DNA of 64,000 nt, taken from Saprospiraceae bacterium. Lineage in GTDB: Bacteria; Bacteroidota; Bacteroidia; Chitinophagales; Saprospiraceae. The notes beneath the pieces were generated by a model, which did no database searches, had not been told where the DNA came from, and saw only the letters and a list, made by a program, of their open reading frames with translations. Location: contig WFYJ01000052.1 of NCBI GenBank assembly GCA_015490175.1, forward strand, positions 10,974 through 74,973. Direction: 5' to 3'. Below, piece by piece: positions 1,667-64,000 of this stretch (the first letter of the stretch is position 1; each line of letters starts with the position of its first letter). The translations under genes and the position numbers were made by a program.

Positions 1667-2821
1667 TTAATGTCCATGCCGGGCCACTTTTTGCGAAAGC
1701 AGCGAGACAATTTCATCGGCCACGCGACGGGCCACGCCCGGCTGTCCGAGCTTTTTGCGCAAAGCGGCATATCCGGATTGCACTTGCGCCAGGCGCTCGG
1801 GATCGAACAACTGATCCAGCTCGGCGGCCGTGCGCGCCGCGTTGAAGTCGTCCTGGATCAGCTCGGTCACCAGCGCCTCACCCATGATCAGGTTGACCAG
1901 CGAGATGTAAGGCACCTTGATCAGTCGCCGGGCAATGAGGTAGGAAAGATAGTTGCCGCGGTAGCACACCACCTGCGGTACGCCGAACATGGCCGTTTCG
2001 AGCGTGGCCGTGCCCGAGGTGACCAGCGCCGCATCAGCTACCGACAGCAGCGGCCACGTCTGGTTGTGCACCAGATGCAGGTTGTCGCTCCGGGCACGCG
2101 CAAAGAATGGCGAGTAGCACTCGGGATCCATGGAAGGAGCGCCCGCAATGACGAACTGTCGGTGGGGCTGGCGCTGCGCCACCTCCAGCATCACGCCGAG
2201 GGCACGCCTGATTTCCTGCTTTCGGCTCCCCGGCAGCAGGGCCACGATGGGTGTATCGGTGTCCAGGCCATGCCTTTCGGCAAATGCCGCCCGGTCGGGT
2301 GCTTGCCCTTCCAGGAAATCGGTCACTTCGTCCACGAGGGGATGCCCGAAATACGACACCTCGATGCCATGACGCGCGTAAAACGCCTGCTCGAAAGGCA
2401 GGATCACGAACATGCGATCGACCGACCGACGGATGGTCGCTACCCTGCCCTCCTTCCAGGCCCACACTTGCGGACTGATGTAGTAGAATACCTTGATGCC
2501 GCGGGCTCTGGCCCACTGCGCCATGCGCAGATTGAAGCCCGGATAGTCGATGAGGATGAGCGCATCGGGCCGAAAGGCGAGGATGTCGCGCTTGCATTTG
2601 GCCATGAGCCTCAGGATGGTCGGCAGGTTGCGCACCACCTCGACGAAGCCCATGAAGGCCGTGTCGCGGTAGTGCACGTCGAGCTGCATGCCCTCGCGCG
2701 CCATCAGGTCGCCGCCCCAGCCGCGCACCCTGGCATCGGGATCGGCCTGGTGCAATCCGCGCACCAGCCACGAGCCGTGCAGGTCGCCAGAGGCCTCTCC
2801 TGCTATGATGTAGTATTTCAT
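1667..2821 (-). CDS. lpxB: lipid-A-disaccharide synthase
   Basis: N-terminus MKYYIIAGEASGDLHGSWLV... and overall length (384 aa) fit LpxB. ATG at 2821. Confidence 0.95.
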   Translation of the reverse strand: MKYYIIAGEASGDLHGSWLVRGLHQADPDARVRGWGGDLMAREGMQLDVHYRDTAFMGFVEVVRNLPTILRLMAKCKRDILAFRPDALILIDYPGFNLRMAQWARARGIKVFYYISPQVWAWKEGRVATIRRSVDRMFVILPFEQAFYARHGIEVSYFGHPLVDEVTDFLEGQAPDRAAFAERHGLDTDTPIVALLPGSRKQEIRRALGVMLEVAQRQPHRQFVIAGAPSMDPECYSPFFARARSDNLHLVHNQTWPLLSVADAALVTSGTATLETAMFGVPQVVCYRGNYLSYLIARRLIKVPYISLVNLIMGEALVTELIQDDFNAARTAAELDQLFDPERLAQVQSGYAALRKKLGQPGVARRVADEIVSLLSQKVARHGH

Positions 2822-2860
2822 GCTTCAATGATTGGAAGTCAGCTCAACCGCCGAGGAGAC

Positions 2861-3160
2861 TCAGAGCAGCTTGCGGCCGTACACCCACATCCACAGCACG
2901 ATGAAGACGAAAGTGGGAAAAACCACTCCGCGCATGGCCTGCCACATGCGTCGCTTCTGAAAGCGCTGCAACAGGATGGCATTCGACGCCAGCGCCACGA
3001 GTGCGATGGTGCGCGCCCTGAAATTTTCCGAAAGGGGGATGCCGGACGTCCATCCGGCCGCATCGAAGGCGGCAAAGAGGCCGTGCAACAACAGGAACAC
3101 GACCACAGGCAGCGCGATGCCTGCAGTCATTCCATAGCCGATCGTGTTGCGTGCAGTCAT
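2861..3160 (-). CDS. small integral membrane protein (about 3 predicted TM helices), unknown function
   Basis: 99-aa hydrophobic ORF. Its ATG (3160-3158) overlaps the surE stop (3159-3157) in an ATGA junction, and it lies between surE and lpxB on the same strand. Confidence 0.55.
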   Translation of the reverse strand: MTARNTIGYGMTAGIALPVVVFLLLHGLFAAFDAAGWTSGIPLSENFRARTIALVALASNAILLQRFQKRRMWQAMRGVVFPTFVFIVLWMWVYGRKLL

Positions 3161-3951
3161 TGGTTGGCAGGTGTGTGAACAATGCTTTTTTCCATGGCCT
3201 TGAGTGCGGGGATGGCCGCATGGACCGTCAGGTCGTGGCCCGAAGGCACCACCGACACGTAACCACGCATCAGGGCTCCCACGTCGGTGTCTTCGCCGTC
3301 GTCATTGCACTCGAAGCGCCCCGTGAGCCAGTAGTACGGCTCGCCCCGCGGGTCGCGCGCCTCCATGAAGTCTTCCACCCATCGCCCCTCGGCCTGGCGG
3401 CACACGCGCAGCCCCTTGATCTGCGACAGCGGCAGTTTGGGCACGTTGACGTTGAGCAGCTTGCAGCCGTCGAGGCCGTGGGCCAGCACCCACTCGACGA
3501 TGCGCGCTGCATAATGGCGGGCCGCCGTGAAGTCGGCATCCCAGCCATAGTCGAGCAAGCTGAAGCCAACGGACGGAATGCCCTCGAGCGAGGCTTCCAT
3601 GGCGGCCGAGAGCGTGCCCGAGTAGAGGATGTTGATCGAGGCGTTGGAGCCGTGGTTGATGCCCGACAGGCAGAGGTCGGGCACGCGATCCTTCAGCACC
3701 ACGTGGCGCGCCAGCTTGACGCAGTCCACGGGTGTGCCCGAACATTCCCAGGCATCGAAGTCCTCGAACACTTCCACCTTGTTGAGGCGCAGCGGTTCGG
3801 CAATGGTGATGGCATGGCCTTGCGCCGATTGGGGCGAGTCGGGTGCCACCACGACAACCTCACCAAACGCGCGGGCCACTTCCACCAGGGCACGCAGGCC
3901 GGGGGCAGCGATGCCGTCGTCGTTGGTGACCAGAATGAGCGGTTTTTTCAT
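3157..3951 (-). CDS. surE: 5'/3'-nucleotidase SurE
   Basis: MKKPLILVTNDDGIAAPGLRAL... and the GINHGSN motif. The true ATG is at 3951; the track ORF extends upstream to 4110. Confidence 0.95.
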   Translation of the reverse strand: MKKPLILVTNDDGIAAPGLRALVEVARAFGEVVVVAPDSPQSAQGHAITIAEPLRLNKVEVFEDFDAWECSGTPVDCVKLARHVVLKDRVPDLCLSGINHGSNASINILYSGTLSAAMEASLEGIPSVGFSLLDYGWDADFTAARHYAARIVEWVLAHGLDGCKLLNVNVPKLPLSQIKGLRVCRQAEGRWVEDFMEARDPRGEPYYWLTGRFECNDDGEDTDVGALMRGYVSVVPSGHDLTVHAAIPALKAMEKSIVHTPANQ

Positions 3952-4097
3952 TTGCTTTCGGGTTGGAAGGCCAAAGATACGGCGATGCCCCGACGATGGG
4001 GTTGCAGGTCCGGCTTCGCTGCGTGTTTGACCAGACGCGAGCGGACAATTGACGCTGCGCTTACAGAAGCCCGGAAGCCAGGCCGTAGTTTCGCGGC

Positions 4098-5322: not shown

Positions 5323-5396
5323 GACTCCGTAGCTCAGCTGGTTAGAGCACTTGACTTTTAATCAAGGGGTCCTGGGTTCGAATCCCAGCGGAGTCA
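5323..5396 (+). tRNA. tRNA-Lys (anticodon UUU)
   Basis: Folded by hand into a cloverleaf: acceptor GACTCCG/CGGAGTC, D-arm GCTC/GAGC, anticodon stem CTTGA/TCAAG with loop CTTTTAA, T-arm CTGGG-TTCGAAT-CCCAG, discriminator A. CCA is not encoded. Confidence 0.9.
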
Positions 5397-5404
5397 CAAA
5401 TGCG

Positions 5405-5438
5405 AAAGCCGCGTTCGTGATCGAGCGCGGCTTTTTTT
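5405..5438 (+). terminator. rho-independent terminator after tRNA-Lys
   Basis: Stem GCCGCG (5408-5413) / CGCGGC (5426-5431) followed by T7 (5432-5438). Confidence 0.65.
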
Positions 5439-5498
5439 CTTATCCGCCTTTCGGCAAATGACGCCCTTGCCCGGTGCAAGGCAGGTGCGGCTACCACC

Positions 5499-6403: not shown

Positions 6404-9400
6404 TCAAATTTCGACGCGGTGGCAGCGGCGCAGCAGGTCGGCATACAGGCTCTGTGCGCAGAGGATCTCTTCGGCACCGACGACGATCATCTGCTCGCGA
6501 GCACGCGTCACGGCCACATTGAGCTTGCGATCGACACCCTCGTCATTGAGGTGCATGAGCATCTCGAGCTGCTGCAGCGAGTTGGTGCACAGTGAGAGGA
6601 TGATGATGTCGCGGGCGCCCCCCTGATAGCGCTCCACGGTGTCGATGGTCCAGCGATCGGGGTCAAGCCCCCTGTTGCTCAACACGCTGCGTATGGCGGC
6701 GATCTGGGCGCGGTAGGGCGTGATGACACCCAGGCTCGGCATGGCCGCTTCGCTGCCGTACATATCCTTGAGCGTGCGGATGATGCGCCCCACGGCCCGG
6801 GCTTCTGCCTCATTCTGCTTGCTGTTGCCGAATTCGGCGGGCTCGGTGGGGATGAACAGGAGGCGGTGGGTGGCAAGCGCCACAGCGAGGGGATCGTCCT
6901 TTTGCGGCAACGGCCGCTCAAGGGGACAAACCTGGCGCGCATGTCCGGGCACGCCTTCAGGCAGCAACTGCAGGTTGCCCTCATAGAAGGCCTCGTTGGC
7001 GAAAGCCATCAGCTCGGCATGCATGCGTCCCTGGTGGGTGAGTTTTGCGAAAGCATGACGCTGCCCCTTTTGCTGGTAAAGCACGAACAGCCGCTCAAAA
7101 AGCGAATTGCCCAGGTCTTTCAAGCCTATGTGCAAGAGCCGCCCATCCTGCACCCTGGTGAGGTGGCCGGGCTGGCCGACCACCGCCGGCAATTGCTTGT
7201 GATCGCCGATGAGCATGACGCGCTCGAAGCGCGGCAGCAGACCGGCCAGCATGGGTTCGGTGAGCTGCGAGGCCTCGTCGATGATGACGCGCTGGAACTG
7301 CTTCAGCTCGAACAGCTCGGGGCGGTTCATCATCGTGGACACCGTGCTCACGATGATGCGGCGCTCCTGCAACAGTTGCACCAGCTCGGCGCGCGTGCCG
7401 AGAGTCTTGAGGCGCTCGGAAAGCAACTGGCCGTGAAACTTCGGGTCAGTGGCATATTTCGACCCTACGCGCAGGTAACAATCCTCGATCGCCTTGCCTT
7501 CGGGCAGCCATTCCGGCCCGATCTGGTGGATCGCCGTGCAGATCTCATCGACCGCCCGATTGGTGTAGGCCAGCAACATGAAGTGCTCGTCGGTATGGCG
7601 CAGCAGCCAGGCCACCCATGCATGCAGCATCTTGCTCGTCTTGCCGGTGCCGGGCGGCCCCCACAGCAGGAACACTTCGCCGGCCTCGAGGCCCTGGCGA
7701 AACACCTCTTGCTGCTCGCGGGTCAGGCCTTCCGGCGGCTGGATGTCGCCTGCCGGATCGCCCTTGCGCGGAGCACGCCGTCCCAGCCAGAGTGCCCGCT
7801 TGTCCTTGTCCGCTTCCGCAAATGCAAAAAGGCTGCGATACAGCGAAATGAACGAGCTGTCGAGCAGGTCGGGCTCGAGGTTCCAGCGCGCGAACTGATC
7901 GAAGAATTCGGCATTGCTCTGGCGGGCCCGCAATCGCACCTTCACCACGTCGGAACCGGACTCCAGTACCGTGCACTTGAACAACTGATTGGACAGTGGA
8001 TGGCTGTCGGGGCCCGCAATCGGGTACAGCACGGCGATGTCGCCCTTTCGGAAATTGCTCAGCTCGCAGGTGTCTTCAGTTTTTCGGAATGTCAGGACAG
8101 GCTCGTCCTGGTGCACCCGATTCTCGACAATCTCCAGGTCGTTCAGAATTTCGAATCGCTCCTGCTTTTCGCGCAGCGAGGAGAGCCACAGGCTGGCCTG
8201 GCCACTGCGCATGCCCGCCCCATCGGCGCCCATTTTGGCATAGCGGTGCTCGCGCGCGATGAAACTCACGTAGGCCGCAAACCAGCGCTGCTCGATGGGG
8301 TCGAGCTGCTCGAGGGCTCTGGAAAAGCGCGTCAGGTCATTGCGCTGAAAACCGCTGAGGTTGGGGAAGCGATCGGGATGCAGTTTCAGCAGCAGTTGCC
8401 ACAGGCGCTTGAAGTCCTCTTCCCTCTGGTGGGGACGGGGCCGGCTCAGCTCGCGCTCGAGCCGGATGAGGCGGTTGCGTACCTGCAAGGCATCGTACTG
8501 GTGCGTCTCGATGCGCGGGGCGTAGCGCAGGGCCTGATCGTCGAGGCGCGAGTAGAGGATGTAGTTGCGCGGATTGCCGGCACTGCCAAAGGCCGACCTG
8601 ACGAGCAGGTCGTACAGCAGCGTCTGGGTAAAGTGATTGGTATTGAGGCCGTAGGCGTTCGGCCGAAACAGACCGCCACTTTTCAATTCGATGATGGCCG
8701 TCTGGTCGTCGGAAGGGCGATACAGCAGGTCGAGGCGGCCCTGCAACCCATAGATGTGGGAGAAGAAGGTGGGCTCGAGGTAGGCCTTCGCCGGCTCGAT
8801 GCCGTGGTCCGACTCGGGCAATTCCTTCAGGACGTTTTGCAGGTTCAGGAAGTGCGCACCGGCCCTGGTCAGCAATTTTCTAAGTTCTTGATCGCTCATT
8901 TTTGCGAAAGCAAAAGGGTTGAGCAGGAAGAACCCGCGCATGAACTCCTTGTTCCACTCCAGGCTCTGATCAACCACCAGCTCGTCGAGCATATGGTTGG
9001 CCAGGGTACCGAGGATCAGCGCCTCGGAAGTGGATCGGGGCAGGAAACGCCGCACGAGGTGCAACTCGGGCACTACCCCATCGGGCAAAAAGCACTCGGC
9101 TACGGCCGTCACGTCGATGAGGAAATCGGGTTCGAGCACGATGAGGCGTGGGCGCCATACCTCGTCTTCATCTACTACGTCGAGCAGATGGACCACCACG
9201 GGAAACCCGAAGCTGCGTTCGATATCGCGTTGGACTGCCTCGAAGTAGTCTTCATATCGGGCACGCGGCCCCACCCTGACGGTCCGGCCCTCTTCATCAA
9301 TGCCTTGCAAATACCCTTCGCTCACCCTCATCAGCACGAGCCGCGTCCACTCGGCCACGTGCTCGGCGGTGCGGTGCGGCACACTTCGGCTGGCCGGCGG

Positions 9401-9781: not shown

Positions 9782-9835
9782 CTCTGCAGTTCAATTTTTT
9801 TTTGGCGAAAGCCGGAATATGTACCCGACGCTTTT

Positions 9836-12812: not shown

Positions 12813-13847
12813 ATGAAAACCCGCACCGCTGCATACGCCCTGATGCTGATTCTGTGCGCAATCGCACATTCGTCGGTCGCCGCACAGGACAAGCCCAGCC
12901 TCATGGACGTGCTCCAGCACGTGGACCTGGCACGCATCGAGGTGCAGGCCGACCTGAGCCGGCTGATGAGCGACATTCAGTCAGCTGAATGGGTGCCCGC
13001 CAGCGTGGTGGTGCGTGCAGGCAGCTTCCGATACACATTCGAGGGCAGGATCCGCCTGCGCGGCCGTTTTCGGCGCATGAACTGCGATTTTCCGCCCCTC
13101 AAGCTCAAAATTCCCAAATCGCAACTGGCCGCTGCCGGCCTCGAGCCCGAGTTCAACGACTTCAAGATCGTCACCCACTGCCTCGACGACCGCTATGCCG
13201 GCAACGCACTCGTCTTGCGCGAATACCTGGTCTATCGGTTCTACAACGCCCTCACTCCCAACAGCTACCGCACCCAACTGGCACGCATGACGTGGGTGGA
13301 CCAGGGCGCCGGCGGCAAGAAGATCCGCCGGTTCGGCTTCCTCATCGAAGACACTGACGAGCTGGCCGCGCGCCTGCACGGTGTGGAAGAAGAGAAGTTT
13401 GGCCTGGCCGGTTCCCGGCTTTCGCCAAACGACACCCGTCTGCTGATGCTGTTTCAGGAACTCATCGGCAATGACGACTGGGACCTGCAGATGGCCCGCA
13501 ACGTCAAATTCATCTACGTGCCCGAACAAAACTGGTACGTGCCGGTGCCCTACGATTTCGACTTCGCCGAGTTCGTGGCCGCCCCCTACGCACGACCCGG
13601 TGCCAAACCCACCCACCTGAGCAGGCACCAATCGCTACAAAACGGCCTGTACCAGAGCCATGTGGCCAGATATTTGCTTGCCAACAAGCAGGTACTTGCC
13701 GAAATCATCAGCTCCAACAGATTCTTGCCCGAATCGGAGAAGGAAACGCTCTTGCTGCGGCTCATGGCGGCCTACAAGCGCCTGGAGCAAAAAGTGCTGA
13801 CACCCGAGGCGCCCGAACAAAAAAAATCCGCAGCAGTTGTGGAATAA
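12813..13847 (+). CDS. secreted hypothetical protein
   Basis: ATG at 12813 gives MKTRTAAYALMLILCAIAHSSVAAQ, a signal peptide. The 344-aa ORF is protein-like and I do not recognise the family. Confidence 0.75.
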   Translation: MKTRTAAYALMLILCAIAHSSVAAQDKPSLMDVLQHVDLARIEVQADLSRLMSDIQSAEWVPASVVVRAGSFRYTFEGRIRLRGRFRRMNCDFPPLKLKIPKSQLAAAGLEPEFNDFKIVTHCLDDRYAGNALVLREYLVYRFYNALTPNSYRTQLARMTWVDQGAGGKKIRRFGFLIEDTDELAARLHGVEEEKFGLAGSRLSPNDTRLLMLFQELIGNDDWDLQMARNVKFIYVPEQNWYVPVPYDFDFAEFVAAPYARPGAKPTHLSRHQSLQNGLYQSHVARYLLANKQVLAEIISSNRFLPESEKETLLLRLMAAYKRLEQKVLTPEAPEQKKSAAVVE

Positions 13848-14034: not shown

Positions 14035-14592
14035 ATGAAAAAGGGCGCATCGTCACGCAAACCGCTGTATTTCGTCGCCACGCTACCACCCTACATGGTA
14101 CGCGAGGAGGTGCACGCCATGAAAAAAGAGATCGCACACACCTGGGGCCCCCGACACGCCCTCAAATCACCTCCTCACATCACGCTCGTCCCTCCATTCC
14201 GCTGGCCGGAACGCGACGAGGAGCAACTCAAGGAAGCACTGCACCGGTTTGCCTGCCACCAGCACAGCTTTCCGGTGGTGCTCGAAGACTTCGGCCGCTT
14301 CGACAAACGCGTCATCTACATCCGCATCCGGCACAATGCCGCCCTGGCTCGCCTGCACTACGACCTCTGCGCCTGGCTCGAACAAAAGGTGCACCTCCAC
14401 TGCAAAGACCGGCGGCCCTTTCGCCCGCACATGACCCTGGCACATCGCGATCTGACCGAGGAGCTGTTTCCCCGAGTGTGGGAAGCATTTGCCGAAAGAC
14501 GATACCAGGCGCATTACACTGCTTCTCACATTGCGCTGCTCAAGCACAACGGCAAATTCTGGGAAATCGAAGCCGAGTATCCGCTTGGATGA
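14035..14592 (+). CDS. 2H phosphoesterase family protein (LigT/ThpR-like RNA 2',3'-cyclic phosphodiesterase / 2'-5' RNA ligase)
   Basis: Two H-x-T-x motifs at the expected spacing (PPHITLVPPF and PHMTLAHRDL). About 185 aa, ATG at 14035. Confidence 0.85.
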   Translation: MKKGASSRKPLYFVATLPPYMVREEVHAMKKEIAHTWGPRHALKSPPHITLVPPFRWPERDEEQLKEALHRFACHQHSFPVVLEDFGRFDKRVIYIRIRHNAALARLHYDLCAWLEQKVHLHCKDRRPFRPHMTLAHRDLTEELFPRVWEAFAERRYQAHYTASHIALLKHNGKFWEIEAEYPLG

Positions 14593-26488: not shown

Positions 26489-26581
26489 AAGCTGTATTTT
26501 GGTGAGCGAGGAAAGCAATCCCGTTACAAGGGGACGCGTATTTTGCGGCAGCAAAGGTGACCAATCACAGGCAATAATCAC

Positions 26582-29191: not shown

Positions 29192-29193
29192 TC

Positions 29194-31355: not shown

Positions 31356-31399
31356 TGAGTATAAATTTCAGGCTTTCGCCAAATTTTGCCCAGCGGGCA

Positions 31400-41904: not shown

Positions 41905-42158
41905 GGATTCGTTTGCCGAAAGGCGATTTATCTGAGGAGAATGAGTGAATGAGTGAGTGAGTGGGTGAGTGAAATGCATATGAATCGTGCCAACCGCTCG
42001 ACATGGACGAGCTGTGCGCCAACTGCGCCTTCTTCGGCCGACGGATCAGTTACACAGAGCGCCACCGAGCATGAACTGATTTTCACAGAGTTGTAAACTC
42101 CAAATCCGAAACACCACCCCCTCTCAACCACTGCAACAGGGTTTCCCAAACCATTTTG
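41905..42158. repeat. intergenic mosaic repeat cluster R12a
   Basis: Contains gtttgccgaaaggcgatttatctgaggagaatgagtgaatgagtgagtgagtg (reverse complement of the R8 end module), cagttacacagagcgccaccgag..cacagagttgtaaac, and gggtttcccaaacc. Confidence 0.8.
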
Positions 42159-45293: not shown

Positions 45294-47480
45294 ATGAAAG
45301 CCCGAATCCTTTCCCTTCTGCTCGCCATTGCGCTGCCGTTCCAGTTGCTCATTGCCGGCGAGGGCATGTGGCTGCCGCTGCTGCTCAAAGCCCTCAACGA
45401 GGAAGAGATGCAGTCGCTGGGCATGAAGATGACTGCCGAAGACATTTACTCGGTCAATCGCGGATCGCTCAAAGACGCCATCGTCCATTTCGGTGGCTTC
45501 TGCACCGCTTCGATCATCTCGCCCAACGGCCTGCTGCTGACCAACCACCACTGTGGCTATGGCGCCATCCAGGACCACTCCACCCTCGAACACAACTACC
45601 TCGAAGACGGATTCTGGGCACGCAGCCGCGACGAAGAGCTGATGAATCCGGGCCTGACGGCTACGCTCATCGTGCGCATCGAAGACGTGACCGACAAGGT
45701 GCTGCGCGGCGTGACTGCCGACATGAGTCGGGAAGCGCGCCAGTCGCGCATTGACCAGAACATGGCCTACGTACGCGAGCACATCCACAAAGAGGACTGG
45801 CAGGACGTGACGGTCAAGCCGTTCTTTCACGGCAATCAGTACTTTGCCTTCGTCACCGTCACCTACCGCGACGTGCGGCTGGTGGGCGCCCCACCCTCTT
45901 CGATCGGCAAGTTCGGCGCCGACACCGACAACTGGGTCTGGCCGCGCCATACGGGCGACTTTTCGCTGTTCCGCATCTATGCCGGCCCCGACAACCTGCC
46001 TGCCGATCCGTCGCCCGACAACGTGCCGTACCGCCCCAAACACTTCCTGCCCATTTCGCTCGACGGTGTGGAAGAAGGCGACTTCACGCTGGTGTTCGGC
46101 TTTCCCGGCCGCACCAACGAATACCTGCCTGCCGTAGCCGTGGACCACATCGCCAACGGCATCGACCCCACGCGCATCGAGATCCGCGACCTGACGCTCG
46201 AGGTCTGGGACGAAGCCATGCGCGCCGACCCGCAGGTCAAAATCCAGTACGCGAGCAAGTTCGCCAGCCTGGCCAATGGCTGGAAGAAGTGGCAGGGTGA
46301 AGTGCTGGGGCTCAAGAAAACCGATGCCATCGGCAAAAAACGGCGCTACGAAGAGCAGTTTGCCGAGCTGGTGGCCTCGCGCCCCGACTGGCAGGAGCGC
46401 TATGGCCATATCCTGCCCACCTTCGAGCAATTGTATGCCCGCGTCGGCCCGCTCAAAGTGGCCCGGACCCGCTATTACGAGACCGTCACGCGCAACATCG
46501 AGGCCCTGCGCGTGGCCGGCTACCTGCGTCGCCTGGTCAACCTCTGGAAAAACAACGGCCCCGAGGCATATGCCGACTACCGCGATCGCCTGGTCGCATA
46601 CCTCGAAGGGTTTTACAGAAACTACCGGCCCGAGCTCGATCAGCGCGTCTTTGCCCGACAGATGGCCCTGTATTTCGAAAAAGGCGGCGAGCTGCTGGTG
46701 GACGAGGCCGTCCGCAGCCGCCTGACCGCCGCCGGCAACGACTTCAATACCTGGGCGACGGCCCTCTACGCCGGGTCTCTTTTGCCGAAAGGCGAACACC
46801 TGTTGGCACTGCTGCAGCAGGCCGACGGCGAAAAGGTGGTGGCCACCCTCGAGGCCGACCCGGCCTACGCCCTGTTCCTCGACCTCGAACGGCGCTATCA
46901 GGAATCAGCAGGCAAGCCGCTCGAACCGCTGCAAAAGGAAATTGACGAGCTGATGCGCCTGTACATGCGCGCCCAGATGGAAGTGTTCGCCAACAAGCGC
47001 TTCTACCCCGACGCCAATGGCACCATGCGCGTGTCGTACGGCCAGGTGGAAGGCTACTATCCGCGTGACGGCGTGCACTACCTGGCCCAGACCTGGCTCG
47101 AGGGCGTCATGGAAAAATACGTGCCGGGCGACTACGAGTTCGACGTGCCCGAAAAGCTGCGCCAACTGTACGCCCGCAAGGACTACGGCCCCTATGGCGA
47201 AAACGGCCGCATGCCCGTGTGCTTCATCGGCTCGAACCACACCACCGGCGGCAACTCGGGCAGCCCCGCCATCGATGCCCGGGGCAACCTCATCGGACTC
47301 AACTTCGACCGCGCATGGGAAGGCACCATGAGCGACCTGAACTACGACATCCGCCTGTGCCGCAACATCATGGTAGACATCCGTTACGTGCTGTTCATTA
47401 TCGACAAATTTGCGGAAGCGCACTGGCTGATCGAGGAGATGAAGCTGGTGCATCCCAAAAAAGAGCACAGGGGGAAATGA
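45294..47480 (+). CDS. S46 family dipeptidyl-peptidase (DPP7/DPP11-like)
   Basis: Signal peptide, then GEGMWLP, SPNGLLLTNHHCGYG (catalytic His region), and GGNSGSPAIDARGNLIGLNFD (catalytic Ser region). 728 aa. Confidence 0.95.
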   Translation: MKARILSLLLAIALPFQLLIAGEGMWLPLLLKALNEEEMQSLGMKMTAEDIYSVNRGSLKDAIVHFGGFCTASIISPNGLLLTNHHCGYGAIQDHSTLEHNYLEDGFWARSRDEELMNPGLTATLIVRIEDVTDKVLRGVTADMSREARQSRIDQNMAYVREHIHKEDWQDVTVKPFFHGNQYFAFVTVTYRDVRLVGAPPSSIGKFGADTDNWVWPRHTGDFSLFRIYAGPDNLPADPSPDNVPYRPKHFLPISLDGVEEGDFTLVFGFPGRTNEYLPAVAVDHIANGIDPTRIEIRDLTLEVWDEAMRADPQVKIQYASKFASLANGWKKWQGEVLGLKKTDAIGKKRRYEEQFAELVASRPDWQERYGHILPTFEQLYARVGPLKVARTRYYETVTRNIEALRVAGYLRRLVNLWKNNGPEAYADYRDRLVAYLEGFYRNYRPELDQRVFARQMALYFEKGGELLVDEAVRSRLTAAGNDFNTWATALYAGSLLPKGEHLLALLQQADGEKVVATLEADPAYALFLDLERRYQESAGKPLEPLQKEIDELMRLYMRAQMEVFANKRFYPDANGTMRVSYGQVEGYYPRDGVHYLAQTWLEGVMEKYVPGDYEFDVPEKLRQLYARKDYGPYGENGRMPVCFIGSNHTTGGNSGSPAIDARGNLIGLNFDRAWEGTMSDLNYDIRLCRNIMVDIRYVLFIIDKFAEAHWLIEEMKLVHPKKEHRGK

Positions 47481-50674: not shown

Positions 50675-52105
50675 ATGCTCCGTTTGCGCTTTTTGCTGTT
50701 CGGCCTCTTCGTGCTCTTTTTGGCGAAAGCCGAAGCCCAGATGACGCCCAAAAAAGAAGCAGCCCTCGCCTCAATCGAGCGACACAGGGAAGCACTGATC
50801 GAATTGAGCGACAAAATCTGGGCTGCCGCCGAGACGGCCTTCCACGAAGAAGAATCGTCGCGCCTGCTGGCCGACTATGCCGAGGCCAACGGCTTTCGCG
50901 TCACGCGCGGCGTGGCCGGCATGCCGACGGCCTTCATCGCCGAATACGGCTCGGGCCGCCCCATCATCGGCATTCTGGGTGAGTTCGATGCACTGCCGGG
51001 CCTGTCGCAAAAGGCCGTACCCCAGAAAGAGCCGCTCGAGCCCGGCGCTGCGGGCCACGGCTGCGGGCACAACCTCTTCGGTGCGGGCAGCCTCGGCGCC
51101 GCCATCGCCATCAAGGAACTCATCGAAGACGGCCGGCTCAAGGGCACCATCCGGTTCTACGGCACGCCGGCCGAAGAGAAGTACTTCGGCAAGCTGTACA
51201 TGGCCCGCGAAGGGCTGTTCGACGACCTGGACGCCTGCCTCGACTGGCACCCCAGCGCCAAAACCAAGGCCAACGTCCAGAGCTCACTGGCCATGGTGGA
51301 CTTCGAAGTGGAGTTCTTTGGCCAGGCCGCACACGCTGCCGGCGACCCCTGGAACGGCCGCAGCGCCGTGGACGGCCTCGAGCTTTACACCACCGGCATC
51401 CAGTACCTGCGCGAACACATCAAGCCCACCGTGCGCATCCACTACCAGATCGAAAAGGCCGGCGACGTGGCCAACGTCGTGCCCGACTACGCGCGCATCT
51501 GGACGCGCGTGCGCGACACCAAACGCGAGGGCATGATGGAAGTCTATGAGCGGGTGAAGCAAATTGCCAAAGGGGCGGCGCTCATGGCCAATGTCGATTA
51601 CAAGATCACGCTGGTGGCCGGCCTGCACGAAGTACTGGTCAACCGCACGGGTGGCGAAGTGCTCCACAAAAACCTCGAATTGCTCGGCCCCATCGAATAC
51701 ACCGATGAAGAAATCGAGTTTGCGAAAGCGATACAACGCGCCACGGGCAAGCCCGAAAAAGGCATTGACGGCTCCATCCAGCCGCTCGAAGAGACGAAGG
51801 AAAACCCGGGCGGCGGCTCTACCGACGTGGGCGACGTGAGCTGGATCGTGCCCGAAATCCGGCTGGGCGTCACTACGGCCCCCATTGATACGCCCTGGCA
51901 CTCGTGGGCCGTGGTAGCCTGTGGCGGCATGTCGATCGGACACAAGGGCATGCTGCACGCTGCCAAAGCCCTGGCCATGACCATCGTGGACCTCATGGAA
52001 AACCCGGATATCCTGCAACAGATGCGCAAGGAGTTCGAAGAAAAACGCGGCGACTACCAGTACAAACCCATCCTGCCCGATGGGCCGCCCCCTATCGGGA
52101 TGTGA
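50675..52105 (+). CDS. M20 family amidohydrolase (AbgB / aminobenzoyl-glutamate utilisation-like), secreted
   Basis: Signal peptide, then ..HEEESSRLLADYAEANGFRV..IGILGEFDALPGLSQ..GHGCGHNLFGAGS.. typical of the M20D/AbgB group. Confidence 0.9.
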   Translation: MLRLRFLLFGLFVLFLAKAEAQMTPKKEAALASIERHREALIELSDKIWAAAETAFHEEESSRLLADYAEANGFRVTRGVAGMPTAFIAEYGSGRPIIGILGEFDALPGLSQKAVPQKEPLEPGAAGHGCGHNLFGAGSLGAAIAIKELIEDGRLKGTIRFYGTPAEEKYFGKLYMAREGLFDDLDACLDWHPSAKTKANVQSSLAMVDFEVEFFGQAAHAAGDPWNGRSAVDGLELYTTGIQYLREHIKPTVRIHYQIEKAGDVANVVPDYARIWTRVRDTKREGMMEVYERVKQIAKGAALMANVDYKITLVAGLHEVLVNRTGGEVLHKNLELLGPIEYTDEEIEFAKAIQRATGKPEKGIDGSIQPLEETKENPGGGSTDVGDVSWIVPEIRLGVTTAPIDTPWHSWAVVACGGMSIGHKGMLHAAKALAMTIVDLMENPDILQQMRKEFEEKRGDYQYKPILPDGPPPIGM

Positions 52106-52222: not shown

Positions 52223-55200
52223 TCATCGCAGGAGCGTCACCTCGCCCTTCAGCAGCTCGTCGCGCCCGTTGAAGCGGTAGGTGAGTTGCCAGACGTACAC
52301 GTCGGAAGGTGCCGGTTTGCCGTTTATGGTGCCGTCCCACGACGGGTTGGCGGCATTGTCGAAGACCACCTGTCCCCAGCGGTTGTAGATGCGGAAATCG
52401 ACGATTTCGATGGCCTCGGAATAGATCACCTCGAAGCGGTCGTTGAGGCCGTCGCCATTGGGCGTGAACAGGTTGGGCAGCTCGATCGTCGCCTGGCGCA
52501 CCACCACCGGAATTTTCACCTCGCCGCTACAGCCGTACTGGTCGTGCACCAGCAGCGTGAACACCAGTTGCACGAAGTCGGCCTCCACTTCGGGCGCCAC
52601 CAGTTGCAGCATGGGTACGATGGTCACGCCCAGCGGCTGGCCCTCACTGTCGAGCCAGGTGTACTCGGGGCCGGCCAGCACCTCCGGCGTCGTATATCCG
52701 TGCAGTTCGAAGGCCTGCCCCTCGAAGACGGTGTCGGGAATGGCCACGGCACTGTCGAGACTGAAGGGCGAGATGAGCTGCACCCAGACCGAGTCTTCCA
52801 CCACGCCGCAAGGCGTGAGCAACTGAACGGTATAGAGGGTCGATGCGGTCGGGCTGACGACCACCTGCTGACCGAACAGGCTGTCGGGCAGCCAGAGGTA
52901 TTCGCCTTCCGGCAAACTGGATGAGGCCTCCAGCAGTACAGCCTCGCCCCGGCAAATATTCTGGTCGGGGCCCGCGTCCACCGTGGCCTCGTCAGCGATG
53001 TGGACGGTGACGGTGTCGCGCAGCGGCGCACAGCCCGGATAGCTGATTTCCAGATAGTACGTGGTGGTCGTAAGGGGCTGCACCACCGGCGCCGGACTAC
53101 TGGACTGGAAGGTGCCGTTCGAGGCCGTCCAGTGGTACAGGTAAGTCGTGTCGGGCGCCAGGTTGAGCGCCACCTGCTCGCCCATACAGATCACCGGATC
53201 CTGTGGCAGTTGCCATACGGGCACGGGCAGCACCACCACCTCCGCTTGCGCGGAATTGGGGCAGCCGTTCACTTCGGCCTCGACGGTGTAGGTGGTGGTC
53301 TGCGCGGGCGTGGCCACCGGATCGGGGCAGTCGGTGCAGCTCAGCCCGTCGGGCGGCGACCAGCTCAGGCTGGCCGGCTCACTCGTGCTCACCTGTAGTT
53401 GGATGCTCTCGCCCGGACACAGCTCGGGCTGTTGCGGGCTCACTTCGACCTGCACGAGGGGCTGCACCTCGACGAGGGCCGTGCTGGTGTCCACACAGAA
53501 ACCATTGCGCGCGATGCGCAGGTAGCGGGTCGTCGTATCGGGCTGCACCACGAGGTGATACAGGCTGTCGGGTGACTGCTGTCCGTTGAGGGGCAGCCAC
53601 TGGAATTCGAGGTCCATGAAGTGCGCCGGCTCGTACAGGGGCGACTGGAGGACGACCATTTGCCCCTGGCAAATGAGCGTGTCGGCCGGCACGATGGCCA
53701 TATTTTGCGGAAGCGAATCCACACCGATGAATACCGAATCGAAGCGCACGCATGCATCGGTCTGTGCTTTCGCAAAATACCACCCGGTGCCTTCCGGGAT
53801 CAGCACTGCCGTGGTGGCTGCGGTATCGATCAACAGGTGGTCGGGAGGGAAGATCCATTCCAGTACCGCATCGGCCGGAAAGACATTTGCCGAAAGGCGG
53901 AGCGTGTCGCGGCTGCAATGGCCCAGCGTGTCGGGCAGGCCCAGATCGACCTGGATGGCCGAGACGGTCACCTGCACCGTATCGCGCACGGCACACGCCT
54001 GGCGCTGCGCCGTCAGCACGTATTCGGTCGTGCCGGCAATCGGGAAGGCCACGGTGTTGGGATCGCCCGGGTCGTCGAGCCCCACCTGCGGCGACCACGA
54101 GTAGGTGACGTCGGCCTCGGGCGTCAGCTCCGACAGCACGACCGGATAGCCCTCGCACACCGTCGTGTCGGGCGCTACGGCTATTTGCGGCAGCGGCACC
54201 ACCTCGACGCGCACGCTGTCGGTTGCGGGCAGGGGACAAGTGCCGTTGGTGGCCGTCACGTAGTAGGTGGTCGTGGCTGCCGGCGTCACGATCGGGTTCG
54301 GCTCGTTGGAACTGAACCCTGCCGGCACCGACGACCACTCGAGCGCAACGTCCGGCGCGGCCGCCCCACCGATGGCGAGGCTCTGCCCCGCACAGATGGA
54401 CGTGTCGGGCACCACCTCGAACTGAGGAGCCTGCTGCGGCAGCACCGTCAGCACCATCTCGTCGGTAAAGCTGCAAGTGGGACCGATGGCCGTGACGGTA
54501 TAGGTGAAGGTGCCGGGCTGCGTGGCCGTAATGACGGGGTCGGGGCAGTCGGTGCAGCTCAGCGTGCCGGCAGGTCCCTGCCACAGCCAGCTCAGGCCGG
54601 CAAAGCTGCTACCCGCCACGACTTGGATGTCTTCGCCGAGGCAGACCGTGCGGTCGGGGCCGGCATCGGCCGTGAGCATGTGGACGGTCACGGGCAAGGT
54701 GTCGGCCTGGCAGATGCCGTGGATGGCCACGTGATAGGTGGTCGTTTCGCTGACCGTCGCCACGGGATCGGGGCAATAGATGCAGCTCAGGCCGTCGGGC
54801 TCGAGCCACTCGTAGTATTCGCCGCCGCTGGCAAACAGTTGGGCCGGCTCGCCCGGACAGACCACCGTGTCGGGGCCGGCCTGAAAGTCGGGCGGGAGGG
54901 CATCGAGCACGCCGGGTGTGGTCGCACTGAAGTCAATGGCCACCGCCCCCGACACGATGTTGCCGCCCCAGTCGTTGACCAGCACCAGATACACCTCGCC
55001 CTGCTGCACCGGCAGGGTGGCCACGAAGTCGTCGCCGCCGGCGTCCTCGCATTCGTCGGTGACCGCGAGGCCGGTGACGGGATGCACGTCGGCCAGGCCC
55101 GTAGGATCGGCGCCGGCGGCATACGAGCTGCGGATGGGCGCGTTGTTGAGGGCGTAGTCGCAGGCAAAGGCGATGTCGGGCAACGGGCCCCAGATCTGGA

Positions 55201-57644: not shown

Positions 57645-59600
57645 ATGGCAAACCGACGCAAGCACAGGGCCCAGCGCAAGGGCGCCGTTTCCCGAAAGGG
57701 AAAGAAAAAAACCGGGAAAACACTTTTTCCGGCGCACTTCTGGCGCCGCTGGGCCCTGCCGGGCCTGGCAGTGTGCGCGCTCGGCCTGAGCCTGTACCTG
57801 CAGACCATCCGTTTCGACTACAACCTCGACGACAAGCTGGTCATCACGCAGAACGAGTTCACGAAGAAAGGGCTGGCCGGCATTCCCGACCTGCTGTTCA
57901 AGGAGAGCTTTTCGGGCTTTCCGGGCTACAATCCCGACCTGATCGCGGGGGCGCGCTACCGCCCCCTGTCGCTGGTCACCTTTGCCATCGAATACGAGCT
58001 TTTCGGGCTGCGCCCCGATATCAGCCACTTCGTCAATGCGCTGCTCTACGCCCTGACGCTGCTGGTGGTGCTGCGCGTTCTGGTGATGTTTCTGCCGGCA
58101 AAGGGCAGCCCCTGGCTGTCGGCGGCCTTTGCCGGGGCCGTCCTTTTCGCGCTGCATCCCGTCCATACCGAGGTGGTGAGCAATATCAAGGGGCGCGACG
58201 AGCTGCTGGCCCTGTTCTTTGCGCTGGGCGCACTTTACTATTCGCTGCGCCATGCGGCCACCAGGCGCCGGCTGCCCCTGGCCAGTGCGGCTATGTTGAT
58301 GTTTCTGGGCATGATGTCCAAAGAAAATGCCATCACTTATATGGCCGTGGTGCCGCTGGCCCAGTTCGTGCTGCTGCGGGCCTCGTGGCGCACCATGATG
58401 CGCACGGTGGCCGTTCTGGCCCTGCCCGTACTGGCCTACCTGTGGCTGCGCATCGAGGCCGTGGGTTACCTGTTCAACCCCGATGCCCCCGTGCAGTCGC
58501 TCATGAACAACCCCTTCCTCGAAGCCACGCTCGAAGAGCGCATGGCCACCATCATCTACACGCTGGGGCTGTACGTCAAATTGCTGTTCTTCCCCCACCC
58601 GCTCACGCACGACTACTACCCCTACCACATTCCGCTCATGCACTGGACCGACTGGCAGGTGTGGCTGTCACTGGTCCTGTACGCAAGCATGACGTGGTGG
58701 GCCCTGCGCACGCTCCCGCGCCGTACGGTGCCGTCCTTTGCCATCCTGTACTTTCTGGCCACCCTATCCATCGTGTCCAACATTCTGTTCCCCGTCGGCA
58801 CCTTCATGAACGAGCGCTTCCTCTACATGCCCTCGCTGGCATTTCCGCTCTTTTTCGGTTGGTTTGCCTTTCGGCAAATGCCGCCATGGCTGGCTCGCTA
58901 CCAGCCTGCTTTCGCAAAATGGAGCCCGCTGCTGCTCAGTGCCGCCTTCGCGCTGGGCTTCGCCTGGAAATCGCTGGAGCGCATCCCCGCCTGGCGCAAC
59001 GAGTACACCCTGAACAAGGCCGCCATCGAGGTCTCGAAAAACTCGGCCCGCGCCAACACCTTCTATGCCTACACCCTCTACCGCATGGCCGTGGACACTG
59101 CCGACATCGAGGCCAAACGCCGGCTCATCGCCGAAGCCGAACCACATGTGGACAAAGCCCTGTCCATCTATCCGCAATATTCCGACGCCTTGCGCACCAA
59201 GGCCGGCATCCGCGCCCTCTACTACCAGCTCGACGGCAATCTCGACCAACTGCTGGCCGACTTCGCCGAAGTGGCGCGCAAAGGCTGGGTGGATTTTCTG
59301 GATACCTACATGAAATACCTCAATGGCCGTGCACCCGCCGAAAAGTTGATCCCGTTCTACCACAAGGTGGGCTACGAGATCTTTTTCCGCGAAAAAGGCG
59401 ACCTCGCGCACGCCATACAGTACCTGCAAATGGGCCTCGAACTCGAGCCGCAAAACCCGCAACTGCTCAAGGACCTCGCATTGGTCCATGCCCGGTCGGG
59501 CAATGCCCGACTGGCGCTGCAATACGCCCAGGCGGCCCTCGCAGCCAATCCCGACGACGCGGAGCTGATCGAGCTGCTGCAACAGACAAATGGACAGTAA
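57645..59600 (+). CDS. polytopic membrane protein with C-terminal TPR repeats (DUF1736 / TMTC-like putative glycosyltransferase)
   Basis: ATG at 57645 (MANRRKHRAQRKG...). About 10 TM segments with ..YNLDDKLVITQNEF.. and ..HPVHTEVVSNIKGRDELL.., then TPR-like repeats. Confidence 0.8.
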   Translation: MANRRKHRAQRKGAVSRKGKKKTGKTLFPAHFWRRWALPGLAVCALGLSLYLQTIRFDYNLDDKLVITQNEFTKKGLAGIPDLLFKESFSGFPGYNPDLIAGARYRPLSLVTFAIEYELFGLRPDISHFVNALLYALTLLVVLRVLVMFLPAKGSPWLSAAFAGAVLFALHPVHTEVVSNIKGRDELLALFFALGALYYSLRHAATRRRLPLASAAMLMFLGMMSKENAITYMAVVPLAQFVLLRASWRTMMRTVAVLALPVLAYLWLRIEAVGYLFNPDAPVQSLMNNPFLEATLEERMATIIYTLGLYVKLLFFPHPLTHDYYPYHIPLMHWTDWQVWLSLVLYASMTWWALRTLPRRTVPSFAILYFLATLSIVSNILFPVGTFMNERFLYMPSLAFPLFFGWFAFRQMPPWLARYQPAFAKWSPLLLSAAFALGFAWKSLERIPAWRNEYTLNKAAIEVSKNSARANTFYAYTLYRMAVDTADIEAKRRLIAEAEPHVDKALSIYPQYSDALRTKAGIRALYYQLDGNLDQLLADFAEVARKGWVDFLDTYMKYLNGRAPAEKLIPFYHKVGYEIFFREKGDLAHAIQYLQMGLELEPQNPQLLKDLALVHARSGNARLALQYAQAALAANPDDAELIELLQQTNGQ

Positions 59601-62488: not shown

Positions 62489-62512
62489 CCAGTGGGCAAG
62501 CTGTCAGCAAGG

Positions 62513-62734
62513 GGTAGTGTCCCCGATCAACTGATTTTAGACTGCGTTTTCTGTGGCCGAAGGCTGCGGTTTCAATGGATGAGGAACCGAGGAACCGAGG
62601 ATTTGAGGATTTGAGCAAGCACCTGATAGTCAATGCAAAAAACGCTCAACGCTACACGCTCAACCCTCAACGATTCACCTTTCTGCAGCCGGTTTATTCT
62701 CGGGATGCGCGATCCTTTATTCAAGGACACCACC
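62513..62734 (-). mobile_element. complete family-A MITE-like unit (reverse orientation), 20 nt upstream of murF
   Basis: GGTAGTGTCCccgatcaactgattttagactg.. at 62513 and ..ggatgcgcgatcctttattcaaGGACACCACC ending at 62734. The interior has the same module order as the 12477 unit, reverse complemented. Confidence 0.6.
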
Positions 62735-62753
62735 TTGCCCTACCTTTGCAGCC

Positions 62754-64000
62754 ATGCCCTATCGCATACGTACCATAGCCGAGGTGATTGGCGCCGAGGT
62801 GTTGCAGATGCCGCACCCCGAAGCCGAGGTGTCCCACCTGCTGCTCGACAGTCGGCAGGTGGTGTTTCCGCGCGTTTCGCTCTTTTTTGCGTTGCGCGGG
62901 CGGCGCCTCGACGGACACGACTTCGTGCAGGAGGCCTGGCAGCAGGGCGTGCGCCACTTCGTGGTGGAGCGCCTTCCGGCAAATGCCACCCTGACGGGTG
63001 CCACCATCCTGCGCGTGTCCGACGCGCTGGCGGCGCTCCAGCAACTGGCCGCCTGGCACAGAAGCCACTTCTCGATGCCGGTGGTGGGCATCACGGGCAG
63101 CAACGGCAAAACCATCGTCAAGGAATGGCTCTACCAGTTGCTGCATCCTTTCGTGCAGGTGGTGCACAACCCGCGCAGCTACAACAGCCAGTCGGGCGTG
63201 CCCCTTTCCGTCTGGCAGCTCGACGCGCGCCACGAGCTGGCCATCTTCGAGGCGGGTATTTCCCGGAAGGGCGAGATGGAGCGGTTGGCCGCCATCATCC
63301 GGCCCACCATCGGTCTGTTTACCACGCTGGGGCCTGCCCACGACGAAGGGTTTGCCGACAGGCAGGAGAAGTTGAGGGAGAAGCTGAAGCTCTTCGCGAC
63401 GGCCGAGCTGATCGTCGCCTGCCGCGACCAGCAGGAGGTGTGGCCGGTGCTGCAGGAGCAGTTTGCCGACAGGCGTCTCTTCTCGTGGTCGCGTACCGAG
63501 ACGGCGGCCGATATGCTGGTGGTGCACGAAGAGGTGTGCGACCAGCACACCCGTCTGCGGGTGCGCCTGCCGGGCGGCATGGTCGGGCTGGAGGTGCCTT
63601 TTGCCGACAGGGCCAGTGTGGAAAATGCGCTGCACTGCCTGGCGCTGTGTGTCGTGCTGGGATATGTCACGCCCGAGCTGGTGGGCCGCTTCGCTCGTCT
63701 GGAGCCGGTGGCCATGCGCCTCGAACTCAAGGAGGGTGTGCAGCAGTGCCTGGTCGTCAACGACAGCTACAATGCAGACCTGGGGTCGCTGGCCATCGCC
63801 CTTCAGTTTCTGGAGCAGCAGGGCAATCGGCCTCGCCGCACACTCATCCTGTCCGACATCCTGCAGAGTGGGCGCAACGCAACGGTGCTCTACCGCGACG
63901 TGGCCCGTCTCGTGGCCGGCCACGGCATCGACCGTTTTGTTGGTGTCGGGCAGGCGGTGCGGGCCGCAGCGACCCATTTGCCGAAAGGCATGGAGACGGC
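62754..64000 (+). CDS. murF: UDP-N-acetylmuramoyl-tripeptide--D-alanyl-D-alanine ligase (probably the N-terminal half of the MurF-alanine racemase fusion common in Bacteroidota); 3' end outside the window
   Basis: Translated by hand from ATG 62754: MPYRIRTIAEVIGAEVL...FFALRGRRLDGHDFV...VVGITGSNGKTIVKEW...SYNSQSGVPLS.., open to the window end. It is not in the ORF track because no stop is reached. Confidence 0.9.
   Translation, partial: MPYRIRTIAEVIGAEVLQMPHPEAEVSHLLLDSRQVVFPRVSLFFALRGRRLDGHDFVQEAWQQGVRHFVVERLPANATLTGATILRVSDALAALQQLAAWHRSHFSMPVVGITGSNGKTIVKEWLYQLLHPFVQVVHNPRSYNSQSGVPLSVWQLDARHELAIFEAGISRKGEMERLAAIIRPTIGLFTTLGPAHDEGFADRQEKLREKLKLFATAELIVACRDQQEVWPVLQEQFADRRLFSWSRTETAADMLVVHEEVCDQHTRLRVRLPGGMVGLEVPFADRASVENALHCLALCVVLGYVTPELVGRFARLEPVAMRLELKEGVQQCLVVNDSYNADLGSLAIALQFLEQQGNRPRRTLILSDILQSGRNATVLYRDVARLVAGHGIDRFVGVGQAVRAAATHLPKGMET

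Follow-up and report, generated by a model that had tools for sequence, protein, structure and literature searches.

To our knowledge, hyper-abundant short words with a function have been described in two proteobacterial families only, i.e. the DNA uptake sequence (DUS) of the Neisseriaceae and the uptake signal sequence (USS) of the Pasteurellaceae, and tentatively in cyanobacteria, where the word is the highly iterated palindrome HIP1. Here we report on a word of this kind in a member of the Saprospiraceae (phylum Bacteroidota; genome G000), recognised in a 64,000-nucleotide stretch of contig WFYJ01000052.1 (C52:10974-74973 of G000, below referred to as the window). A sequence-only reading of the window had noticed an identical 14-20-mer recurring in unrelated genes and in spacers. 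What recurs is, however, no single invariant 14-20-mer but a family of words with a 13-nt core, GCCTTTCGGCAAA, in which the stem covaries, the loop is restricted and a TTT/AAA flank is obligatory, and the hairpin GCC-TTTC-GGC, already remarked on in the core, is the key feature of the family. We show that the word is a DNA-level, lineage-specific, strand-symmetric, evenly scattered and strongly constrained signal that is defined by its ability to fold.

The likeness to uptake sequences and to HIP1 that had been suggested from the window stands. As is the case for DUS and USS, the hairpin word is a hyper-abundant short word with roughly one copy per 1-2 kb that is present on both strands, between and inside genes, in all frames and in a random scatter; it is conserved beyond codon needs, scarce in foreign islands and lineage-specific, with dialects between related genera. 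It differs from DUS and USS in being a family with covarying stems, where the fold is conserved besides the letters, in that copies with one mismatch are much rarer, in the phylum of the host, and in that the pilus ATPase family is absent, making a receptor of the ComP pilin type unlikely. HIP1 (GCGATCGC) is likewise a hyper-abundant word of coding as well as non-coding DNA with conservation at synonymous positions (PMC5861425), and its long obscure role is now tied to transformation and horizontal transfer (bioRxiv 10.1101/2024.09.10.611283; PMC13756078). HIP1 is, however, a single perfect duplex palindrome with methylation sites of known methylases, whereas the hairpin word is asymmetric and allows many stems.

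Three other kinds of element share part of these characteristics. The mini-hairpin DNAs d(GCGNNAGC) and d(GCGNAGC) (Hirao and colleagues; PMC13037366) have the same C-G closing pair and GNNA or GNA loop, and one genus studied here uses a GAA triloop, but the known ones are single sites in phage and plasmid origins while the present family has thousands of chromosomal copies, an obligatory TTT and a third loop position restricted to A or C. Repetitive extragenic palindromic (REP) sequences and bacterial interspersed mosaic elements (BIME), which are associated with REP-associated tyrosine transposases (RAYT), likewise form short hairpins, number in the hundreds and have a conserved stretch directly 5' of the hairpin. 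REPs are, however, extragenic, 20-40 nt long and need a Y1 (RAYT) transposase, whereas 78% of the hairpin sites are intragenic and the sites are created by substitution. Neither G000 nor its congener G001 has a member of the Y1_Tnp family, and a REP/RAYT origin was rejected for this reason. Finally, Chi and the FtsK-orienting polar sequences (KOPS) are words found in excess on chromosomes, and the reading of Chi takes place on single-stranded DNA, but these are 5-8 nt long with a modest excess and a leading-strand skew, while the present word is 13-20 nt long (the 13-nt core being the most informative part), in more than 300-fold excess and unskewed. A literature search with the motif string gave no relevant paper, and TACTGAGGGG, an unrelated word carried by other clades of the Saprospiraceae, has no copies in G000.

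Definition of the hairpin family

The G000 genome is a 4.14-Mb draft in 291 contigs with 60.2% G+C, and the closest named relatives of its LpxB belong to a Haliscomenobacter metagenome-assembled genome (60% identity) and to uncultured Saprospiraceae. Counted genome-wide, the 13-mer core is present in 876 copies compared to 0.35-2.5 expected from Markov models of orders 1 to 5, which bears out the excess surmised from the window, and the reversed-pattern control gave 0-8 copies. The 15-mer GCCTTTCGGCAAATG (391 copies) is the top 15-mer of the genome, and the related words GGCTTTCGCCAAA and YGCTTTCGCAAAA are present in 388 and 311 copies, respectively. The whole family, for which a perfect 3-bp stem was required and both strands were counted, comprises 2,377 sites or one per 1.74 kb. 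Below, sites are assigned to the strand that reads stem-TKNC-stem-AAA, while the GNMA hairpin lies on the complementary strand.

Variants of the 13-mer with one mismatch are found in 0-3 copies each, except at two loop positions, and the loop variants TTCC, TTGC and TGTC have 169, 88 and 46 copies. The most common stems are GCC/GGC (876), GGC/GCC (388), TGC/GCA (190) and CCC/GGG (63), and altogether 11 complementary stem types have at least five copies, while mixed stems, e.g. GCC with GCC, are present in 0-3 copies each. There are 1,900 CTTTCG...AAA sites, and 1,859 of them have a Watson-Crick inner pair where the marginals predict 912; for the outer pair the corresponding numbers are 1,631 and 976. 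For CTTTCG without AAA, stem pairing is only at chance level. Enrichment was detected for loops of 4 nt only, with the order GAAA >> GGAA > GCAA > GACA ~ GGCA > GTAA on the hairpin strand and with GAGA unenriched. TTT precedes 876 of the 920 copies of GCCGAAAGGC.

These observations are summarised by the rule 5'-W-TTT-[N2 N1 C]-G-N-(A/C)-A-[G N1' N2']-R-R-A for the hairpin strand, on which the consensus is g-G-G-y-n-n-Y-W-TTT-[G S C]-G-N-A-A-[G S C]-R-R-A-a. The element is asymmetric, with TTT on one side only and a G...A loop, and is not a perfect duplex palindrome. At the three bases 3' of the stem A and G are preferred and C is depleted; it is suggestive that this R-R-A tail fits pairing to TTT, including T.G wobble, on the GNMA strand only. 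The sequence is random beyond approximately 10 nt on either side, and in 86% of the 2,370 fully flanked sites the flanks have no similarity to those of any other site, hence the abundance is not due to longer repeats or, as might have been feared from the window, to its repeat clusters. Taken together, the Markov expectation, shuffles, reversed-pattern controls and flank uniqueness rule out chance, codon usage and repeat clusters as sources of the word.

The family follows the sequence rule for mini-hairpins, i.e. C-GNNA-G or C-GNA-G with a short G+C stem, and GGCGAAAGCC and GCGAAAGC are present literally. The mini-hairpin CGGCGAAAGCCG melts at 89 C, is nuclease-resistant and is poorly bound by the single-stranded DNA-binding protein (SSB); natural mini-hairpins are found at the single-strand initiation sites of primase and RepB' and in the hairpin promoters of phage N4 (PMC13037366).

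Distribution, conservation and spread

Genes were predicted with our own simple codon-usage caller (2,630 genes, 83% coding), for which start calls are rough. In total 1,847 sites (78%) are coding, divided into 913 sense and 934 antisense and using all six frames, and 503 sites are intergenic, which is a mild excess (21% of the sites in approximately 17% of the DNA); a mild enrichment was also seen near gene ends. Among the intergenic sites located up to 60 nt upstream of a called start, 108 have the TTTG...GNMA strand as the sense strand compared to 57 in the other orientation, and TTTG is the -33 element of the Bacteroidota promoter type; the bias may reflect its co-option as such an element.

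For the replication strand we used 40 contigs of G000 (length of 20 kb or more and a clear GC skew), where GC skew serves as a proxy in a fragmented assembly. On these contigs the main word is divided 115:117, i.e. without replication-strand bias and without the placement on the lagging-strand template looked for as a sign of a primase or single-strand initiation signal. The KOPS-like polar word GGGCAGGG (cf. KOPS, GGGNAGGG) is divided 114:49 on the same contigs, 70% being oriented toward the G-rich strand, and a skew of the hairpin word would therefore have shown. In the absence of strand skew Chi, KOPS and lagging-strand priming were rejected as explanations.

The sites are scattered almost as in a Poisson process (mean 2.90 and variance 3.09 per 5-kb bin), and the densest cluster has six sites of differing orientation and variant within 1.5 kb. 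Their density rises 4-6-fold with G+C content, from approximately 0.8 per 5 kb below 55% to 4.4 above 64%, which is the opposite of the slight fall that we calculate from base composition alone. The long motif-free low-GC stretches include two of more than 10 kb, both outside the window (C255:218-10789 and C29:2562-13503); one has a Cas3 (HD plus helicase) locus and the other an MmeI-like methyltransferase adjoining a DDE transposase with DUF4277. Accessory DNA thus lacks the word, which is scarce in islands of recent acquisition. Among viral sequences, 81 IMG/VR loci matched the 15-mer but had only one or two family sites each, which is the chance level, and phages as carriers of the tag were rejected.

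To follow the sites in related species, approximately 350 kb from each of the two congeners G001 and G002 were aligned to G000, and orthologous sites with gaps inside the 13-mer were left out of the scoring. In G002 (84.7% identity) 140 of 175 sites are retained, of which 125 are identical and 15 changed in the loop only, while 21.2% is the baseline for an unchanged 13-mer; the corresponding values for G001 (72.8% identity) are 33 of 115, with 27 identical and 6 changed in the loop only, and a baseline of 2.7%. Divergence at third codon positions is 0.110 inside and 0.277 outside the sites for G002, and 0.275 and 0.499, respectively, for G001. In non-coding DNA it is 0.066 inside and 0.175 outside for G002, and for G001 the difference is negligible (0.249 and 0.273). 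The copy in lpxB is identical in all three species although its flanks have diverged, and the peptide encoded there is unconserved across forty other Bacteroidota, so conservation at the protein level does not account for this copy; more generally it is ruled out by the third-codon constraint. The use of all six frames, the unconserved LpxB peptide and the synonymous positions, which diverge 2.5x slower within sites, thus agree with the conservation at the DNA level that had been proposed from the window.

In the orthologous sites inspected, the sequences with and without the motif can be aligned with no gain or loss of length, which suggests that these sites arose by base substitution within existing genes and spacers and not by insertion. 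A miniature inverted-repeat transposable element or another mobile insertion was rejected for this reason and because the flanks are random. In about half of the lineage-specific sites four or more of the 13 positions (often 4-9) differ from the orthologue while the flanks are fairly conserved. Such clustered differences could resemble patches written in one step, but the neutral third-position divergence (28-50%) and the outgroup polarity (five losses, two gains and two ties in nine cases) fit decay after loss better, and a patch-writing mechanism was rejected.

Within the genus, which is represented by three species, copies of the 13-mer number 876, 754 and 278, respectively. Among 80 genera of the family about a dozen have a clear excess of the tetraloop hairpin (e.g. 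443, 218, 199 and 157 copies compared to 0-10 in controls), several have a weaker excess and most are at background, as are 139 genomes from 25 other families of the order. The form with a GC stem stands out in the same genomes (702 copies in G048, 522 in G000 and 192 in G077), and its dialect ATTTG[C/T]GNAAGC has 131 copies in G000. In 200-kb samples from four other genera (37-43% G+C) the element ranks among the top words, and the preferred forms differ: TTT-GGC-GAAA-GCC in G077 and G061, TTTT-GC/CC-GCAA/GAAA-GC/GG in G048 and, in G009 (38% G+C), a dialect with a triloop (TTT-CCC-GAA-GGG as well as TTT-ACC-GAA-GGT), for which 358 copies were counted compared to 27 in the control.

With respect to genes for competence and pili, a check of which had been proposed, ComEC and DprA are intact in the genome, but for the PilB/PilT/T2SSE ATPase family (PF00437) only sub-threshold P-loop matches were obtained in G000-G002, the pilins themselves not being searched; the Y1 (RAYT/IS200) transposase family PF01797 has no member in G000 and G001. 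Classical pilus-dependent uptake was rejected since a PilB/PilT-type ATPase is missing, which excludes membership of the DUS/USS class but not DNA uptake as such. In a transposon screen of Riemerella, also a member of the Bacteroidota, transformation needed ComEC, DprA, ComF and RecA together with proteins that have no relation to known uptake machinery; a helix-hairpin-helix protein and a beta-barrel outer-membrane protein were also required, and no pilus gene was among the hits (PMC8459023).

Sites and genes in the window

Within the window 31 family sites are present. The exact 20-mer GCCTTTCGGCAAATGCCGCC occurs three times, at 2272-2291 and 29172-29191 as given in the sequence-only reading and at 58866-58885, one position to the right of the start reported there, and it has three further copies with 1-3 mismatches compared to 0.02 expected from shuffles. 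All six exact copies of the 14-mer were recovered where they had been placed, at 2273, 5447, 29173 and 58867 on the + strand and at 53884 and 63975 on the - strand, and at up to two mismatches there are 20 copies compared to 0.97 expected from shuffles. Among the near copies, 14486 and 46779 are correct while 62966 and 41911 should read 62971 and 41910.

The gene that carries the first 20-mer is lpxB as proposed (1667-2821, - strand, PF02684 match). A TGC-TTTC-GCA-AAA site lies directly beyond its stop in intergenic DNA (1636..1648, +), with one stem mismatch in the G002 orthologue, and another within the gene in sense orientation (1689..1701, -) is identical in G002; the 20-mer itself (2272..2291, +) is antisense to the gene, and its 13-mer is identical in G002 and G001. 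The GCC-TTTC-GGC-AAA site at 5446..5458 (+) is intergenic and follows tRNA-Lys (5323-5397) and, as had been stated, its terminator. The stem of this terminator (window 5400-5445) starts with GCGAAAGCCGCG, which contains the mini-hairpin word GCGAAAGC without the TTT handle.

Further to the right, TGC-TTTC-GCA-AAA is present twice (7043..7055, - and 8900..8912, -) in an open reading frame (ORF) of 1125 aa (6404-9781, -), followed by GGC-TTTC-GCC-AAA in intergenic DNA (9801..9813, -) and in ORF 12741-13847(+) (13417..13429, +). The copy at 14481..14500 (-), in a LigT-like gene, is decayed to GTC-TTTC-GGC-AAA with one stem mismatch; it is perfect in G002 and G001 and was thus lost in G000. GGC-TTTC-GCC-AAA is found again in ORF 17962-21270(+) (19371..19383, +; identical in G001), TGC-TTTC-GCA-AAA in ORF 22689-23486(-) (22888..22900, -), and GGC-TTTC-GCC-AAA in ORF 25532-27364(-) (25796..25808, -). 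Two loop variants follow, TGC-TGCC-GCA-AAA (26541..26553, -), with the loop GGCA on the hairpin strand, and GCC-TGCC-GGC-AAA (26659..26671, +), and the rare stem GTC-TTTC-GAC-AAA is present in a sigma-54 activator gene (27721..27733, +; gene 27440-28768, -).

The second 20-mer (29172..29191, +) is intergenic, as proposed, and is located directly 3' of the stop of a DoxX-like ORF. It is followed by GGC-TTTC-GCC-AAA in intergenic DNA (31371..31383, +), CGC-TTTC-GCG-AAA in coding DNA (38233..38245, +), and GCC-TTTC-GGC-AAA at 41912..41924 (-), which is intergenic according to our gene caller. GCC-TTTC-GGC-AAA is also present at 46781..46793 (-), antisense to a peptidase S46 gene and identical in G002 and G001, and GGC-TTTC-GCC-AAA at 50719..50731 (-) in ORF 50675-52105(+). 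The gene at 52223-56752(-), with CHU_C, Ig_7 and PKD domains, was correctly read as a T9SS (type IX secretion system) adhesin. It carries GCC-TTCC-GGC-AAA (52904..52916, +; loop TTGC in the G002 orthologue), CGC-TTCC-GCA-AAA with a T.G wobble on the hairpin strand (53703..53715, -; identical in G002 and G001), TGC-TTTC-GCA-AAA (53765..53777, +) and GCC-TTTC-GGC-AAA (53886..53898, -), the last being the copy earlier given as 53884-53897.

For the gene described as TMTC-like (57339-59600, +), TPR repeats were detected, and the only other basis for that name is a sub-threshold match to PF08409 (TMTC_DUF1736). The TPR protein gene has CCC-TTTC-GGG-AAA (57688..57700, -), the third 20-mer (58866..58885, +) and, 41 nt 3' of the latter, TGC-TTTC-GCA-AAA (58907..58919, +). 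The gene earlier called murF is a Mur ligase gene, a + strand frame from 62754 to the end of the window, and carries the loop variant GCC-TTCC-GGC-AAATGCCACC (62971..62990, +), CCC-TTCC-GGG-AAA (63259..63271, -; loop TTTC in G002), two copies of GCC-TGTC-GGC-AAA (63351..63363, - and 63462..63474, -), and GCC-TTTC-GGC-AAA (63977..63989, -), which corresponds to the earlier 63975-63988. Several long ORFs overlap in these regions (57335-59650 with 57339-59600, and 62633-64000 with 62721-63998(-) and 62754-63998), and among them only 57339-59600(+) and 62754-end(+) have family matches; the others are shadow ORFs as is typical at 60% G+C.

Other abundant words in G000 are unrelated to the hairpin, i.e. 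AACCGCAGCCTTCGGCCGCAGA (approximately 240 copies), CTCTGTGAAAATCAGTG (approximately 215), GAGGAACCGAAGAACCGA (approximately 190) and GTTTAAAGTTT in tandem runs. They are found e.g. at 12470-12696 and 42159-42610 in the window and are probably members of intergenic repeat modules.

Possible readings of the word and their meaning

Because there are 11 stems, all of them complementary, and hardly any mixed ones, the signal is most likely read while the DNA is single-stranded, by a candidate protein that would bind the TTT-plus-hairpin. Stems that covary and are genus-specific, with even a triloop in one genus, likewise point to recognition of single-stranded DNA. Conversely, covarying stems, a restricted loop and the TTT flank argue against a fixed double-stranded word of the DUS/USS type and against a simple site for an architectural protein, the part of the earlier suggestion that is not supported. 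A strand-blind process that favours resident over foreign DNA fits the data best, and we therefore favour, with a probability of roughly 0.4, that the word is a lineage "self" tag that is read on a single-stranded DNA mini-hairpin in exchange or recombination and is kept by drive or selection. An incoming single strand would, for example, enter via ComEC and then be handled by DprA and RecA, and DNA with the fold would be favoured in exchange or recombination. This preference would both spread the word (molecular drive) and retain it, in the manner of the uptake sequences of Neisseria and Haemophilus; the recognition would act on the single-stranded fold, and no type IV pilus would be needed. 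A more far-reaching version, which we regard as tentative and somewhat doubtful, is that this would be the first genome-wide "self" signal read as a shape, namely a mini-hairpin of single-stranded DNA that has a TTT handle, with a putative hairpin-binding protein of the Saprospiraceae acting in pilus-independent transformation, recombination or discrimination between self and non-self, and with stem and loop dialects comparable to the DUS dialects.

Several points weigh against the "self" tag. Competence is not known in the Saprospiraceae, and the link from the word to a process of exchange is drawn from sequence features. ComEC and DprA are near-universal and their presence therefore says little. 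In the known uptake sequences a pilin binds a fixed word on double-stranded DNA, and copies with one mismatch are rarer here than in Haemophilus. As to the fold, nearest-neighbour calculations give only -2 to -5 kcal/mol with a model that omits this special loop class, and an extra stability would be taken from the literature. The pairing of R-R-A with TTT is inseparable from a plain purine preference since TTT is invariant, and the lack of covariation between positions -1 and +16 rules out that the helix extends beyond TTT.RRA. Moreover, no compensatory stem switch was found at any orthologous site, all 21 retained-but-changed sites differing in the loop only, which indicates that the identity of the stem matters besides its pairing. 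Finally, no phage contig had more than two family sites in the stretch analysed.

An unlikely alternative is that each site is selected at its own locus for chromosome maintenance. On DNA that is transiently single-stranded, a stable mini-hairpin would keep SSB away and attract a primase, a factor for restart or RecA loading, or a regulator that acts on a helicase-nuclease as Chi does. Mini-hairpins of this kind, with their poor SSB binding, do occur at primase and RepB' initiation sites and in N4 promoters (PMC13037366). Furthermore, the sites are under very strong purifying constraint with hardly any decayed copies, and a spacing of approximately 1.7 kb is on the scale of Okazaki fragments or of Chi sites. 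The even strand split, on contigs where the KOPS-like octamer is 70% skewed, speaks against it, as does the size of Chi and KOPS, only 5-8 nt and modestly over-represented; in addition, a word that is abundant in a minority of the genera of one family would be odd for a core replication or repair signal. Considering the lack of skew and its abundance in some genera only, a polar role in replication or repair is unlikely.

It is also rather unlikely that the word is the footprint of a selfish or mutational process without benefit to the cell, left by a hairpin-specific nuclease, a short-patch repair enzyme (Vsr, for example, shapes CCWGG words) or template switching at very stable loops that perfects stems. 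The patchy, accessory-gene-like distribution among genera and the perfect stems with almost no near-misses speak for such a process, as do the lineage-specific sites that often differ at 4-9 of 13 positions amid conserved flanks, but the latter differences correspond to neutral decay after loss (28-50% third-position divergence; the outgroup has the motif in five of nine cases). Template switching leaves the obligatory TTT, the restricted loop and the preferred stems unexplained, and stem switching, which it also predicts, was seen at 0 of the 21 changed-but-retained sites. The RAYT/IS200-type Y1 family is absent from G000 and G001, and no candidate enzyme was found.

It is improbable that the word is bound as a duplex by an abundant protein of the nucleoid-associated or regulatory kind. 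Such a site would agree with the many copies on both strands, with the mild enrichment in spacers and near gene ends, and with the orientation bias upstream of genes (108 compared to 57). Nevertheless, a dimer reading inverted half-sites that tolerates GCC, GGC, TGC and CCC should also accept mixed ones, of which there are only 0-3 compared to hundreds of matched ones, and it would have to bind an element that is asymmetric (one-sided TTT, G...A loop) and intragenic in 78% of the cases, in every frame. An RNA element, in the form of a transcript hairpin with a GNRA-type tetraloop, can be considered highly improbable: the loops GAAA, GGAA and GCAA belong to the GNRA class and a wobble pair, T.G (U.G), is apparently tolerated, but the gene-relative orientation is balanced (913:934), the non-GNRA loops GACA and GGCA are enriched while GAGA, the only GNGA loop counted, is not, and a 3-bp stem is marginal for RNA function.

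Returning to the "self" tag, genomic behaviour like that of DUS, USS and HIP1 is already known; what is new is the definition by a hairpin, the dialects in stem and loop length, the phylum and the missing pilus, and the word could represent a new kind of signal if recognition of the single-stranded fold is confirmed. The reading predicts that compensatory stem mutants function while stem-broken ones fail, and a single-stranded oligonucleotide of the word (5'-CATTTGCCGAAAGGCAA) would be a simple bait for the reader protein. If the word is indeed a "self" tag for exchange or repair, gene flow in this abundant aquatic and wastewater family would have a built-in preference for kin, and the word would provide a practical handle on transforming Saprospiraceae.

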